Part shown: positions 56,768-60,453 of the stretch, one piece after another | Layout: each line of letters starts with the position of its first letter | How positions within the stretch are numbered: position 1 is the first letter of the stretch | Origin: an uncultured Actinomycetota bacterium | GTDB taxonomy: Bacteria > Actinomycetota > UBA4738 > HRBIN12 | Length of the DNA: 64,000 nt | NCBI GenBank assembly: GCA_963839395.1 | Contig: CAWIUW010000002.1 | Coordinates: 64,057 to 128,056 of the forward strand | Direction: 5' to 3' | Translations under genes and position numbers: made by a program | Notes under the pieces: generated by a model | Database searches by the model: none | What the model was told of the DNA's origin: nothing | The model's input: only the letters and a program-made list of their open reading frames with translations

Positions 56768-59062
56768 ATGAATGCGATGACCTGGATCGTCGTCAGCGTG
56801 ATCGTGTTCATCGCGCTCGTGATCGTGGTCGACGGCGTGCGGCAGCGCCGGATCCGGGCAGCCCGGACGATCGACCTGCGCGGGCCGGTTGCCGCGCGCC
56901 TCGCGGAACGTGGGCCCGCGGTGCTCACGTCGGCGCTCGCCTCGGCACTCACACGGGAGCCGCCCGTTCACGCCGATCTCTACGTCAACCTCACCGAGGC
57001 GTTGGAGGTCGCGAACCTGCGTCCGCGCGTACAGGACCGTGCGGAGGTGAAGATCTTCCGCCTTCGGTGGGGGAACGATTACGCGATGCTGTCGCGCGCG
57101 GACCGTGAGCTCCACTATCGCTTGGAGGTCTGGGAGGCAGAGCTCCTGCCGAAGATGGACGGCACCCGCACGGTCGGAGAGCTCGTGGTCGAGCGGATGG
57201 AGGCCGGGGGCGGCCTCGACGCAGAACCGGTCACCGATCTCGTGTTGGCTCTGCAGGCGGGAGGATTCCTCGATCCCGCCCCCATCCCCACCGACGAGCT
57301 GATCGTCGACCGCCTGGATCCCTCCTCCCCGGGACGGAAGAAGTTGAAGCGCTTCGGAAAGACCTTGTCGATCGACTGGAAGGGGGCGGATCGGTTCGTC
57401 CGCTTCTGCTACCGGAACCTGCTGCGGCCCTTCTTCTGGTGGCCGGTGGCGTTGGTCTCCGGACTCGTCGCGATCGCCGGCCTCCTGGCGTTCTTCGAGG
57501 TCCATGCCTCGGGGCAGTTCGCGAAGGTGTTCGATGAAGAATCGGCGCCGGCCGAGGCGGGCATCCTGCTCGCGCTCGCGTTCTTCCTCACGTTCATGCA
57601 CGAGCTCGGTCATGCCGTCGTGATCTCGCGCTACGACCGGAAGGTGAAGAGCGCGGGGTTCATGATCTACTTCGGCGCGCCCGCGTTCTTCGTGGAGGCG
57701 ACGGACAGCCTCATGCTCGACCGCCGCCAGCGGATAGTCCAATCGTCTGCAGGACCTTTCACGGAGCTGATCATCGCCGGGGTTGCCTCCATCGCCGTCT
57801 TCGCGTTCCCCACGAGCCCCGTGGCGGGACTGCTCTACAAGTTCGCCTGGCTGAACTATCTGGTGATCTTCTTGAACCTCATCCCGCTCCTCGAGCTCGA
57901 CGGGTACTGGATCCTCTCCGACGCGATCCAGGTCCCGGATCTCCGTCCGCGGTCCCTGCGGTTCATCCAGCACGACCTCTGGCACAAGCTGCGCGTCCGC
58001 GAACGGCTCACGCCCCAGGAGTGGGGGCTCGGTTGGTACGGCATCGCCGGCGTCGTGTTCACGATCTTCTCGTTCTGGACGGGGTACATCTTCTGGAAGG
58101 AGATCTTCGGCGAGCTGATCGTCAGTCTGTGGAAGGGGAACCTCGGGTCCAAGATCCTCCTGGTCCTGCTCGGCGTGTTCCTCGCGGGGCCGATCCTGCG
58201 TGGGTTGCTGAACCTCGGTCGGATCTTGTTCCGGAGACTGCGAGGGCTGATCAACTCGATCCGGTTCCGGTTCGAGACCTCATGGCGGGTCGAAGCGGCG
58301 GAACTGATCGACGCCTTGCCGGCGTTCGACGATCTGCCCGAGAGCGTGCTCTCGGACCTCGCGGGACGCCTCCACCTGCGGATCATCCGACCGGGCGAGC
58401 CAGTGTTCCGGCAGGGAGATCGACCGGACGCCTTCTACGTCGTTCGGCGGGGAACCGTGCAGATCGAAGATGAAGATCAGGAAACGGGAGATACGCGGGT
58501 GCTCCGAGCTATGACGCGAGGCGAGTCGTTCGGCGAGATGGGCCTCCTCGGATCACACCGGCGCCAGGCGACCGTCCGGGCGGTCGACGACGTGGAGTTG
58601 TTCGTGGTCGACAAGGGGACGTTCGATCGGCTCCTGGCAGAAGACATGCGGGCGCCGGACTTCGCGCACACGATGCAGGCATTGGCCGAGCTCCGGGAGC
58701 TCTCGGTCTTCCACGGACTCGACTCGGAGCAGTTGAACGGGATCCTCGAGCACGGGGAGTGGGTCACGGCGGCGCACGGCGACCGTCTCGTGACGCAAGG
58801 GGAACCCGGTGACCGCTTCTACGTGATCCAGTCGGGCAGGGCAGAGATCGTTCGGGACGGCACCGTCATCGACTCGGTCAGCAAGGGCATGTATTTCGGA
58901 GAGGTGGCGCTGCTCCGCGACATCCCCAGAACCGCAACGGTCGTCGCGGCCACGCCGATGCGCGTCTTCGCCCTCGATCGGGACGGCTTCGAGCTCGTCG
59001 TCGCCGATGCCTTCCGCCGCGGTACGCTCCGCCCCGCCGCCGACCGTATCTGGCAGCACTGA
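56768..59062 (+). CDS. membrane protein: N-terminal TM + PqqD/RRE-like domain + YydH-type M50 peptidase + two cyclic-nucleotide-binding domains
   Basis: RRE-like ...MDGTRTVGEL...LVLALQAGGFL; HELGH, AGP and NLIPLLELDGY; cNMP cassettes FGEMGLLGSHRRQATV and FGEVALLRDIPRTATV. Start at 56717, 56768 or 56777. Confidence 0.85.
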   Translation: MNAMTWIVVSVIVFIALVIVVDGVRQRRIRAARTIDLRGPVAARLAERGPAVLTSALASALTREPPVHADLYVNLTEALEVANLRPRVQDRAEVKIFRLRWGNDYAMLSRADRELHYRLEVWEAELLPKMDGTRTVGELVVERMEAGGGLDAEPVTDLVLALQAGGFLDPAPIPTDELIVDRLDPSSPGRKKLKRFGKTLSIDWKGADRFVRFCYRNLLRPFFWWPVALVSGLVAIAGLLAFFEVHASGQFAKVFDEESAPAEAGILLALAFFLTFMHELGHAVVISRYDRKVKSAGFMIYFGAPAFFVEATDSLMLDRRQRIVQSSAGPFTELIIAGVASIAVFAFPTSPVAGLLYKFAWLNYLVIFLNLIPLLELDGYWILSDAIQVPDLRPRSLRFIQHDLWHKLRVRERLTPQEWGLGWYGIAGVVFTIFSFWTGYIFWKEIFGELIVSLWKGNLGSKILLVLLGVFLAGPILRGLLNLGRILFRRLRGLINSIRFRFETSWRVEAAELIDALPAFDDLPESVLSDLAGRLHLRIIRPGEPVFRQGDRPDAFYVVRRGTVQIEDEDQETGDTRVLRAMTRGESFGEMGLLGSHRRQATVRAVDDVELFVVDKGTFDRLLAEDMRAPDFAHTMQALAELRELSVFHGLDSEQLNGILEHGEWVTAAHGDRLVTQGEPGDRFYVIQSGRAEIVRDGTVIDSVSKGMYFGEVALLRDIPRTATVVAATPMRVFALDRDGFELVVADAFRRGTLRPAADRIWQH

Positions 59063-59073
59063 GGAGGGATCGC

Positions 59074-59286
59074 GTGGATTGCTGGCACTGCCGCAGGAAC
59101 GCCGTGGGGAGCTGTCGCTTCTGCGGTCGCGGGGTCTGCGAGGACCATGCGGAGACCCAGCCGTTCGTGCTGGAGCTCTACAGGAGCAAGGACGTCACGC
59201 GAGCGCTCGTGGTCGAGGACGCCTTGTGGTGCGCTGCCTGCACGCCCCGGCCCGATCCGGTGGACCTGCCGGAGCTCGACGCCTGA
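59074..59286 (+). CDS. small zinc-finger protein (DUF2180/B-box-like)
   Basis: CWHC...CRFCG..C..H...CAAC; GGAGGG SD directly after the M50 gene stop. Confidence 0.75.
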   Translation: MDCWHCRRNAVGSCRFCGRGVCEDHAETQPFVLELYRSKDVTRALVVEDALWCAACTPRPDPVDLPELDA

Positions 59287-59295
59287 GACCCCATC

Positions 59296-59432
59296 CCGGA
59301 TGTGACCTGCGTCACATCCGGAGGCTGTTCGGCGTCACATCCCGGACCGGCCGCGCATCACACCGATCGGCGTGACGAACGACACCCCTCCTTCGTGACC
59401 TGCGCCACCGACCCTCCGTGACCCGGGCGACA
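59296..59432. promoter_or_regulatory. array of six CRP/GlxR-type boxes, 23-bp period
   Basis: Perfect TGTGA-N6-TCACA at 59301, within a 10-bp inverted repeat (59296-59321); partial boxes at 59324, 59347, 59371, 59394 and 59417. Confidence 0.7.
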
Positions 59433-59495
59433 TGATTCGGGTGTCGAAGAACGGGGCCCGACCCGGGCCCAAGGACTCAGGAGGAGGACCCTGGG

Positions 59496-59654
59496 ATGGC
59501 GGACAAGAAGATCACCCCGAAGGCTGCGGACTCCAAGGACAAGCAGACCGGCGACCGTGCCGCTGCTCGCGTCTCGCTGAAGAAGACCGCGAGGCAGACG
59601 AAGCGTCAGACGACCAAGAAGACCGCACGGAAGATGACCCACAAGAAGATCTGA
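59496..59654 (+). CDS. 52-aa Lys/Arg/Thr-rich peptide MADKKITPKAADSKDKQTGDRAAARVSLKKTARQTKRQTTKKTARKMTHKKI
   Basis: Strong SD (AGGAGGAGG) before the ATG, all 13 Lys codons are AAG, terminator downstream; below the ORF-track size cutoff. Confidence 0.8.
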   Translation: MADKKITPKAADSKDKQTGDRAAARVSLKKTARQTKRQTTKKTARKMTHKKI

Positions 59655-59673
59655 TCCTCGATCCCACATCGTT

Positions 59674-59706
59674 CGAAGAGCGGGGCCCCTCCGGCCCCGC
59701 TCTTCG
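59674..59706 (+). terminator. probable intrinsic terminator after the peptide gene
   Basis: 14-bp perfect stem CGAAGAGCGGGGCC-N5-GGCCCCGCTCTTCG. Confidence 0.75.
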
Positions 59707-59751
59707 CGTTCAGGCTGGCCTGAGCGATGCGGCGAGGCTAGTCTCCTGGTC

Positions 59752-60453
59752 ATGCGGCGCTCCGACGACCTCCACGTTGGCAAGGTGATGGCGGGCGCCC
59801 CGTTCCTCGAGGACGTGCCGCGGAAGGCGCTCGACCGCTTCTCCTCAGAAGGCGCCGTGCATCGGTTCCGCCGCGGCACCTACCTGTGCCACCAGGGTGA
59901 CCCCGACGGTGACGTGTTCTTCCTCGTCTCGGGCCGGGTCGAGATCAGCTCCGAAACGGCCAACGGGAACCGTGTGCTGCACGCGACCCTCGATAGCCCG
60001 GGATTCGTCGGCGAGCTGTCGGCGCTGGGGAAGATGCCGAGGACGGCGAGCGTCCTCACGCTCGACGACTCGGACGTCTGGTCCACGGGACCGGAGACGT
60101 TCCTCGATTTCGTGACCGCTGAGCCGGCTGCTTCCCGCGGCTTCCTCCAGGCGCTCGCCCGACAGGTCCGGGAGCATCAGTCCTTCACCGACGACCTCCT
60201 GCACCTCGATCTCAAGGGGCGGCTCGCGAAGAGACTCCTCCAGCTCGTGACACCAACGCTCGATGAGCTGCCGAAGGACGGGGTGCTCGTCCCCGCCGTC
60301 ACACACGCGGACCTCGCGAGCCTGTGCGGCGGGAGCCGAGAGAACGTGACCCGCATCCTCACCGAATGGCAGCGTCGGGGGCTCGTGGAGCGTGACGGCC
60401 ATCGCTACGTGCTCAAGAAGGTCGCGGGGCTGGCGAAGATCGCCGACCTCTAA
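59752..60453 (+). CDS. Crp/Fnr family transcriptional regulator
   Basis: cNMP cassette VGELSALGKMPRTASV; HTH THADLASLCGGSRENVTR; TAGTCT -10 element 7 nt before the ATG. Confidence 0.92.
   Translation: MRRSDDLHVGKVMAGAPFLEDVPRKALDRFSSEGAVHRFRRGTYLCHQGDPDGDVFFLVSGRVEISSETANGNRVLHATLDSPGFVGELSALGKMPRTASVLTLDDSDVWSTGPETFLDFVTAEPAASRGFLQALARQVREHQSFTDDLLHLDLKGRLAKRLLQLVTPTLDELPKDGVLVPAVTHADLASLCGGSRENVTRILTEWQRRGLVERDGHRYVLKKVAGLAKIADL

Follow-up and report, generated by a model that had tools for sequence, protein, structure and literature searches.

Organization of the locus

The sequence examined here (the window, a 64,000-nucleotide stretch of one contig) belongs to a 2.89-Mb assembly with a G+C content of 68.5% and a completeness of 91%, from a lineage known solely from metagenome-assembled genomes. 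A row of CRP-like boxes occupies a 209-bp gap between two small genes, and the surrounding genes all lie on the + strand. Upstream of the gap are the gene for a membrane M50 peptidase, recognized by domain match and carrying two C-terminal cNMP-binding domains (~56768-59062), and the syntenic gene for a 70-aa Cys-rich Zn-ribbon-like protein (59074-59286). Downstream are an open reading frame for a 52-aa Lys/Arg/Thr-rich protein (59496-59654), which is covered by RNA contigs, and the gene for a 233-aa regulator of the Crp/Fnr family (59752-60453), which starts 316 bp beyond the array. Folding of the + strand between these last two genes predicts a terminator-like hairpin without a U tract at 59675-59705 (13-bp stem, -30.6 kcal/mol, z -6.2), whose position is conserved. 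A -10 hexamer, TAGTCT (59739-59744, + strand; TAGGCT in relatives), stands 7 nt before the crp ATG and implies that crp has a promoter of its own and a leaderless mRNA. The genome contains 41 places where a class III cyclase domain scores above the Pfam cut-off, which indicates that cyclic-nucleotide signalling is heavily used in this organism.

The 52-aa protein has a conserved N-terminus (MADKKITPKA...DRAAARVS), with the cross-genus form M-(A/V)-(D/E)-K-K-(I/V)-x-P-K, and a C-terminus made of a variable run of short basic repeats (RQTK, KAVHP, AKKTL, ARN). A comparison of 25 distinct sequences from the genus, covering 27 codons, gave 7, 7 and 21 variable sites at the first, second and third codon positions. 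Judged from these alignments, the open reading frame is a real coding sequence and the N-terminus of the peptide is under purifying selection. No Pfam or NCBIfam family matched the protein, the ESM Atlas returned sub-threshold hits only (0.81-0.82, in unnamed clusters), and a homologue search found 46 metagenomic proteins named at most "hypothetical protein". We also considered whether the Lys-rich reading frame might be an attenuation leader for crp, an idea countered by the purifying selection and by the separate -10 hexamer and leaderless start of crp. The M50 protein keeps its syntenic place in 77 of 80 loci, the remaining three being truncated. It scores 164 bits against the NCBIfam model for a daptide-biosynthesis intramembrane metalloprotease, under the 300-bit cut-off, and 53 bits against a RiPP maturation protease model; as a lead only, these matches suggest that it may process a peptide, possibly the 52-aa one.

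Anatomy of the array and its promoter

The original prediction placed six 16-mers in this gap at successive spacings of 23, 23, 24, 23 and 23 bp, followed by a CATGAT at 59431-59436, and the starts, the intervals and the hexamer were all found in the sequence as claimed. Its description of all six as CRP-like boxes held in part: box 1 is perfect and boxes 4 to 6 are good, but boxes 2 and 3 amount to right half-sites. We scored each box by its matches to the 10-base core GTGAC-N4-GTCAC, which gave 10, 7, 6, 9, 9 and 8 of 10 for boxes 1 to 6. Promoter positions are numbered with the hexamer at -12 to -7 and a predicted transcription start at 59443.

Box 1, TGTGACCTGCGTCACA (59301-59316, predicted centre -134.5), contains a perfect TGTGAC-N4-GTCACA and a full TGTGA-N6-TCACA. 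It lies inside an 11+11-bp palindrome (59296-59321) that begins 10 nt past the Zn-ribbon stop codon and would fold, if transcribed, with -20.7 kcal/mol (z -4.6). This box scores 10/10 in all 24 same-genus loci. Box 2, GCTGTTCGGCGTCACA (59324-59339, predicted centre -111.5), has a right half-site only, GTCACA (2+5 of 10), and box 3, CCGGCCGCGCATCACA (59347-59362, predicted centre -88.5), a degenerate one, ATCACA (2+4 of 10); with 6-7 of 10 matches, both could be unbound. Box 4, CGTGACGAACGACACC (59371-59386, predicted centre -64.5), reads GTGAC-GAAC-GACAC. Its GAAC spacer is conserved along with the arms (at least 95% column identity over 27 genus sequences), and a GAAC box of this type was found again in other genera. 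Box 5, CGTGACCTGCGCCACC (59394-59409), reads GTGAC-CTGC-GCCAC, overlaps a poor -35 region (CCGACC) and has its predicted centre at -41.5, the class II position. Box 6, CGTGACCCGGGCGACA (59417-59432, predicted centre -18.5), reads GTGAC-CCGG-GCGACA and runs into the -10 hexamer with its right half; many relatives carry it as a direct repeat, GTGAC-N4-GTGACA. Of 27 genus sequences, 22 have the GTGAC of box 6 unchanged and four have lost it, and one genus genome (G017; loci L023 and L053) has a deletion that removes box 6 together with the hexamer. The combination GTGAC-N8-CATGAT is present in other genera too. Boxes 2 and 3 thus retain the promoter-proximal half, whereas boxes 4 to 6 retain a perfect left, promoter-distal half, GTGAC, and the sole 24-bp step falls exactly at the junction of the two types. 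A seventh in-phase near half-site, GTGTC (59441-59445), lies at the predicted start within the conserved stretch TTCG-N-GTGTCGAAG.

The -10-like hexamer CATGAT (+ strand) predicts a transcription start near 59443. Its form in the genus is CA-N-G-(A/C)-T, other genera have CATGAT, CAGGAT, GATGAT, CACGAT and similar, and the overall pattern is (C/G)A-N-G-(A/C)-T. A scan of 58900-59900 for the sigma-70 consensus (TTGACA-N16-18-TATAAT, at least 9 of 12 matches) found no sites. The poor -35 and non-canonical -10 would fit an activator-dependent actinobacterial promoter. To examine the register we took 99 arrays from relatives (described below) and recorded the offset of a hexamer of the CATGAT type or TANNNT from the centre of the last strong box. 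The hexamer began 28-30 nt after this centre in 42 of the 99 and 5-7 nt after it in 22; a third peak lay at 52-53 nt (7+5 occurrences), and any other offset occurred in at most three arrays. Since the peaks are 23 bp apart, the promoter appears locked to the phase of the array with one box at -41.5. The register proposed originally, in which box 5 lies at about -41.5 if CATGAT is the -10 element and transcription starts 7 nt after it, is therefore a conserved one.

Further downstream, the 5'-UTR contains a predicted hairpin, GGGCCC-GACCC-GGGCCC (59454-59470, + strand), with compensatory GGGTCC/GGACCC variants, and a Shine-Dalgarno run, AGGAGGAGGA (59479-59488, + strand), that is invariant in the genus. 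The one hit of our terminator scan, a terminator-like site on the minus strand within the peptide gene, is irrelevant here. Two soil metatranscriptome studies (runs X2 and X3) yielded contigs that match 59452-59661 and 59452-59664 with one mismatch, and two further RNA contigs match 59493-59641 and 59510-59667. Near-identical peptide RNA thus exists as a short separate unit. The contigs, from four runs in all, carry no true 5' end, strand or expression level and cannot map a start; their 5' end at 59452, 9 nt downstream of the predicted start, is consistent with it. No contig extends into the array, covers most of crp or links the peptide gene with crp, gaps that prove nothing in assembled contigs from four runs. 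A 31-nt piece from run X1 matching 59347-59377 had loose ends and was assigned to another organism.

Conservation among relatives

A search of 41 relatives found the regulator in every one of them, with the gene order Zn-ribbon, peptide, crp maintained. A wider scan of species genomes covered 218 relatives, of which the best 80 were all uncultured Actinomycetota metagenome-assembled genomes. From the pooled loci (L005-L034 and L036-L145), 130 had a Crp hit, 124 of them with at least 600 nt upstream, giving 100 distinct upstream sequences; four loci on contigs that were too short (L013, L042, L091 and L109) were left out of the orthologue analysis. Our counts include loci from genomes flagged as unpublished (G002, G005, G010, G029, G037, G052, G055, G056, G064, G074, G077, G097 and G099), and no claim depends on these alone.

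A cluster of at least two boxes scoring at least 8/10 was found in 99 of the 100 distinct crp-upstream regions, a count to be read with the knowledge that the arrays were defined by the same box score that was then counted. The motif scan of orthologous intergenic regions that had been proposed as a check accordingly returned conserved boxes of the CRP type. Strong boxes numbered two in 11 regions, three in 47, four in 32 and five in nine, and the in-phase positions per array ranged from 2 to 6 across the 99 regions. Neighbouring boxes were separated by 237 gaps, 200 of them at 22-24 bp (17, 106 and 77, respectively), 22 at 46-48 bp, 11 at 68-71 bp and four off-phase. Periodicity in orthologues had been set beforehand as a test on which the original prediction could fail, and 233 of the 237 gaps proved to be 22-24 bp or two or three times that; the orthologues are kin and not independent trials, so that such counts overstate the independent support.

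Once weak boxes are included, 26 of the 27 distinct genus sequences show an in-phase chain of 5-6 boxes, and 45 of 72 sequences from other genera a chain of three. This difference points to three contiguous boxes as the likely ancestral form. It is likely that the present genus added 23-bp GTCACA units, of which 1-3 copies occur within it, and a box inside the core promoter. In the alignment of the 27 genus sequences, the box halves, hexamer, start stretch, Shine-Dalgarno run and 5'-UTR hairpin are conserved while the spacers drift. A protein-free search for a two-box phased pattern recovered it in 102 of 151 genomes of the order, including all 12 other genomes of the genus, as compared with four hits in total for the reversed control. 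Among 30 loci from this search, 20 lay beside the Crp orthologue, one beside a distant paralogue, one beside the peptide gene only and eight elsewhere.

The arrays are also graded in strength. The distal-most box scores 10/10 in 83 of 99 arrays and the proximal-most in five; the distal score exceeds the proximal in 88 arrays, equals it in eight and is lower in three. The strong-to-weak gradient needed by the proposal that the distal box nucleates binding is thus conserved in 88 of 99 arrays, which suggests cooperative loading.

Distribution of phased boxes within the genome

Loose matching to TGTGA-N6-TCACA in the window showed no enrichment (7 sites at up to two mismatches, versus 11.5 expected), and box 1 is the only one of the six that comes within two mismatches of this consensus. 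What makes the array significant is therefore how its boxes are phased and conserved, and not how many motifs the window contains. At the scale of the genome the array stands out: six GTGAC/GTCAC pentamers in 150 bp are the single genome maximum, the next best being five, against a background of 7044 such pentamers in 2.89 Mb (mean ~0.37 per 150 bp). At 23/24 bp, half-sites in register form a chain of six once in the genome, at this locus, and the next best is a chain of four poor boxes. When the spacing was varied over the rest of the 17-34 bp range, chains reached 3-4 at most. Over 59292-59346, Tandem Repeats Finder gives a period of 23 bp and 2.4 copies. Genome-wide there are four perfect TGTGA-N6-TCACA sites, and 15 at up to one mismatch versus two for the reversed control, an enrichment which indicates that a regulon motif exists in this genome. 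A crude GC3-based filter placed none of the 14 other near-consensus sites in a likely coding region, an outcome that carries no weight because the filter also called no gene near four of them.

A second phased array, of three boxes at 23/24 bp, was identified just past the lysS stop codon on contig C11. It is followed by a TAGCGT hexamer 29 nt after the boxes, as at the main array, and, ~150 nt beyond the hexamer, by a same-strand hairpin that has a T run. The array is found at the orthologous place in the four other genus genomes examined (three public, one unpublished), with TACGTT, TACGGT or TAGGTT as hexamer. The predicted transcript matched no Rfam family and gave sub-threshold terminator-hairpin hits only, and we saw no convincing open reading frame there. 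This independent locus suggests that phased rows in class II register are a habit of the regulon and not a peculiarity of one gap.

The candidate regulator

The neighbouring 233-aa protein is a Crp-family regulator with a CRP-type recognition helix, and its domains are a cNMP-binding domain (PF00027) and HTH_Crp_2 (PF13545). The solved proteins most similar to it are M. tuberculosis Crp (E 5e-21), C. glutamicum GlxR and E. coli CAP. The helix GGSRENVTRIL aligns to GASRETVNKAL of M. tuberculosis Crp (SRENVTR versus SRETVNK), and the phosphate-binding motif G-E...P-R-T-A-S is present. Nine orthologues with 56-100% identity share the stretch VTHADLASL(C/S)GGSRENVTRIL without change, and the R-E-x3-R recognition helix is invariant across families, so that an invariant helix matches an invariant box sequence. 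In CAP, R180, E181 and R185 of RETVGR read TGTGA (PMC10187061). Against the NCBIfam CRP equivalog NF008732 the protein scores 71 bits with a cut-off of 266, and it is therefore a family member, not an orthologue of E. coli CRP. The adjacent Crp/Fnr protein (59752-60453) is the most likely binder of the array. Two other HTH_Crp_2 paralogues in the genome, on contigs C14 and C5, have the helices REVVAR and RESVNR, both of the R-E-x3-R form, and the assignment is consequently not exclusive.

Comparison with known multi-site promoters

That such a long tandem array is unusual was borne out insofar as the six-box chain is unique in its genome, but promoters with several CRP sites are known, among them mtl, malK and whiB1. 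The five-site CRP operator of the E. coli mtl operon is reportedly treated in work by Ramseier and Saier from 1995. The five mtl sites are centred at -262.5, -219.5, -175.5, -102.5 and -58.5, with spacings of 43, 44, 73 and 44 bp, of which the 43-44-bp spacing is read by MtlR; four CRP sites are quoted for malK (PMC13421365). The mtl region resembles the present array in having many CRP sites per control region with a conserved centre-to-centre distance, and its conserved spacing carries function and its upstream sites are needed for full activation (PMC13421365). As described there, mtl leaves free DNA where MtlR bridges the dimers, whereas the present sites adjoin one another, roughly half as far apart; and the nearest mtl site, at -58.5, is class I, whereas the nearest activating position here is predicted to be class II.

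The other close precedent is whiB1 of M. tuberculosis, where CRP1 at -58.5 and CRP2 at -37.5 are immediately adjacent (21 bp) and filled in order, the first CRP site helping the occupation of its neighbour, and adjacent dimers leave the alpha-CTD no room and repress (PMC2844151). Both cases involve an actinobacterial CRP and adjacent TGTGA-type boxes, a stronger one upstream and a weaker one downstream, with the proximal one in the core promoter region. At whiB1 there are two sites 21 bp apart, whereas the array has six predicted ones (3-7 in relatives) at 22-24 bp, so that successive dimers would be rotated and not on one face; and here a box at -41.5 is joined by one at -18.5, and the target is a gene for a small basic protein beside crp. 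E. coli class II and class III promoters share with the array, in its predicted register, a TGTGA-N6-TCACA site on the -35 at about -41.5, a weak core promoter and extra upstream sites (PMC10187061). In the classic class III arrangement described there, two sites lie several helical turns apart on one face (PMC10187061); here the row is unbroken, with a distal-to-proximal affinity gradient and a variable unit copy number that set it apart. Taken as at least two sites before one promoter, the multi-site (class III-like) definition covers the array with its six in-phase boxes. It also has the parts of a CRP-type operator as read in the DNA, namely inverted-repeat boxes and a cognate-type regulator with a cNMP-binding domain and a CRP-type HTH. 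In the literature searched, which left most subscription journals outside, we found no contiguous row of more than two CRP sites with kept spacing and a gradient.

Interpretation of the array and alternative explanations

On this evidence the array is, as judged by motif and conservation, a real, conserved and unusually dense CRP-type operator of a familiar bacterial switch type. It is probably a multi-site operator, in class II register, that controls the promoter of the 52-aa gene. The binder, its ligand, the direction of regulation and any cooperativity are inferred. With 10.5 bp per helical turn, a mean spacing of 23.3 bp turns each site ~70-80 degrees from the one before; the upstream dimers could therefore not all touch polymerase, unlike those of classic class I/III promoters, and would serve an architectural or cooperative role.

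Whether the array activates or represses is uncertain because adjacent dimers repress at whiB1. Box 6, at -18.5 inside the core promoter, may likewise repress, which argues against pure activation. An unlikely alternative keeps the same regulator and boxes and has the filled array mainly repress or give a band-pass response: contiguous dimers would exclude the alpha-CTD, the -18.5 box would occlude the core promoter, and the peptide would be made only at low or intermediate cNMP. At whiB1 the weaker second site, 21 bp from the first, represses, and a maximum of expression is expected at intermediate cAMP (PMC2844151). The conservation within the genus of box 6 and of the in-phase GTGTC at +1, and the recurrence of the box 6 half-site and hexamer in other genera, point the same way. 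Yet the most widespread and probably ancestral layout is three boxes that end at -41.5 and leave the core promoter free, the poor -35 and non-canonical -10 are as expected of an activator-dependent promoter, and the GTGAC of box 6 has been lost from four of 27 genus sequences, with the stretch deleted in one more. It is also conceivable, though we consider it improbable, that the boxes are read by another protein, either a Crp paralogue or Crp together with a bridging partner that has no DNA-binding domain, such as the syntenic Zn-ribbon protein or the basic peptide; such a partner would enforce the fixed spacing, as MtlR does at mtl. The helices of the C14 and C5 paralogues and the synteny of the Zn-ribbon gene with the array are compatible with this, and MtlR is described as binding solely with CRP sites 43-46 bp apart (PMC13421365). 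However, the array lies beside this crp gene in 99 of 100 distinct loci, the helix of this Crp is invariant, and dimers set 23 bp apart have no free DNA between them for a bridging partner to occupy.

The remaining two explanations deny the row its function as an operator. In one, there is a single functional CRP site (box 1, perhaps with boxes 4-5), and the rest is neutral debris of 23-bp tandem duplication whose phasing is a by-product. The tandem repeat of 2.4 copies, the variation of unit copy number in the genus and the identical duplicated 16-mers in locus L028 show what suggested it; but other genera and families retain the spacing even where the spacers have no sequence in common, spacers drift around boxes that stay conserved, the gradient and the -10 register have likewise been preserved, and a second, unrelated locus has the same phasing, so that we regard debris as very improbable. 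To the other, in which the palindromes are RNA or DNA hairpins (for example a structured leader, or a terminator for the M50/Zn-ribbon operon upstream) and not protein sites, we give hardly any credence at all. The stable fold of the box 1 palindrome just past the Zn-ribbon stop and the z of -2.6 for the whole 141 nt are in keeping with it, but no Rfam family matched 58900-59900 on either strand (0 at E<=1), the stems are invariant GTGAC/GTCAC and do not covary while the loops vary, three of the six boxes are without a second arm, the palindrome reaches beyond TGTGAC/GTCACA in some species only, and the near-identical RNA contigs do not cover the array. Box 1 by itself could still double as a secondary terminator.

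If the array is indeed a CRP-type operator in class II register, its layout suggests a mechanism. A cNMP-bound dimer would occupy the perfect distal box first, and further dimers would load side by side every 23-24 bp onto ever weaker boxes; filling of the -41.5 box would then bring about class II activation of RNA polymerase at a promoter that combines a poor -35 with a non-canonical -10, and the outcome would be a steep, threshold-like response. Last to fill would be the half-site box at -18.5 and possibly the GTGTC at +1, which could reduce expression once regulator activity is very high. More speculatively, and as a whole doubtful, a contiguous Crp-DNA filament that starts at box 1 and extends down the affinity gradient to the promoter might act as an all-or-none switch while the M50 protease cleaves the peptide, with one second messenger serving both. 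Were this so, a graded cyclic-nucleotide level would be turned into an all-or-none decision, with a threshold tuned from species to species by gain and loss of 23-bp units (three boxes in most genera, 5-7 in this genus), and a cationic mini-protein would be cut by a cNMP-gated intramembrane protease related to RiPP leader peptidases.

CRP is the textbook example of an activator in bacteria, and if the row loads cooperatively it would be a natural case of a simple dimeric factor building an ultrasensitive switch, in an array that evolves visibly through unit duplication. The array appears to mark the top target of cyclic-nucleotide signalling in a widespread, uncultured order of soil actinobacteria, and that target would be a small basic protein encoded in a conserved four-gene cassette with a cNMP-sensing membrane protease.

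A second phased array downstream of lysS

Phased CRP-type boxes are not confined to the array upstream of the small basic protein gene, as we found a second array outside the window, directly 3' of the lysS stop codon (locus L035, 1490-1549, corresponding to G000:C11:134789-134848 in the organism's own genome). It consists of three CRP-type boxes at a spacing of 23/24 bp, is followed 29 nt beyond the boxes by a TANNNT hexamer, and is kept at the orthologous position in all four other genomes of the genus examined. Downstream lies a conserved stretch of ∼150 nt that terminates with a same-strand hairpin and T run. Since this stretch gave no match in an Rfam search and no convincing ORF was seen in it, its product is a candidate small RNA or tiny gene under Crp control.

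Features of the cassette around the main array

The main array always lies 3' of the gene for a Zn-ribbon-like protein (window 59074-59286; 70 aa, of which eight are Cys, matching DUF2180/Zn-ribbon weakly), which itself starts 12 nt past the stop codon of a membrane M50 peptidase gene (about 56768-59062). The peptidase carries two cNMP-binding domains at its C-terminus, keeps its synteny with the cassette at 77 of 80 loci, and scored 164 bits, under the 300-bit cut-off, against the daptide-biosynthesis intramembrane metalloprotease model NF041824; it may process the adjacent small basic protein. The N-terminal 27 residues of that protein are conserved, unlike its C-terminal half (59574-59651), where short basic tandem repeats change fast among the orthologous peptide genes (L036-L115), examples being RQTK x4, KAVHP x7, AKKTL x9 and ARN x9.

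Box 1 is contained in a perfect palindrome of 11+11 bp (59296-59321), 10 nt past the Zn-ribbon stop codon, which could have a second role as terminator hairpin of the upstream operon. A compensatory pair of changes was found in one relative (L009), but in most relatives the palindrome reaches just 6-9 bp. Between the predicted transcription start and the SD of the peptide gene is another hairpin, GGGCCC-loop-GGGCCC (59454-59470), for which relatives show compensatory GGGTCC/GGACCC variants; the base of this hairpin (59452) is where the RNA contigs from two studies start. A natural deletion of ∼38 bp in G017, a genome of the same genus (L023, L053), has taken out box 6 together with the -10-like hexamer and the region of the start, fusing box 5 directly to this 5'-UTR hairpin.

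The crp gene has a conserved -10 hexamer of its own, TAGTCT (TAGGCT in relatives), which lies 7 nt 5' of the ATG (59739-59754), implying that its mRNA would be leaderless. There was no CRP box at position -41.5 of this promoter.

Crp-family proteins and cyclic-nucleotide signalling

Two further Crp-family HTH proteins with an R-E-x3-R recognition helix are encoded at G000:C14:46280-46492 (REVVAR) and G000:C5:327490-327684 (RESVNR), and in the latter protein the usual motif for binding the cNMP phosphate is apparently absent. Across the whole 2.9 Mb genome cNMP-binding domains are numerous, and the class III nucleotidyl cyclase domain PF00211 was detected above cut-off at 41 places. The cyclic-nucleotide signalling repertoire of this bacterium is thus very large relative to its genome size.
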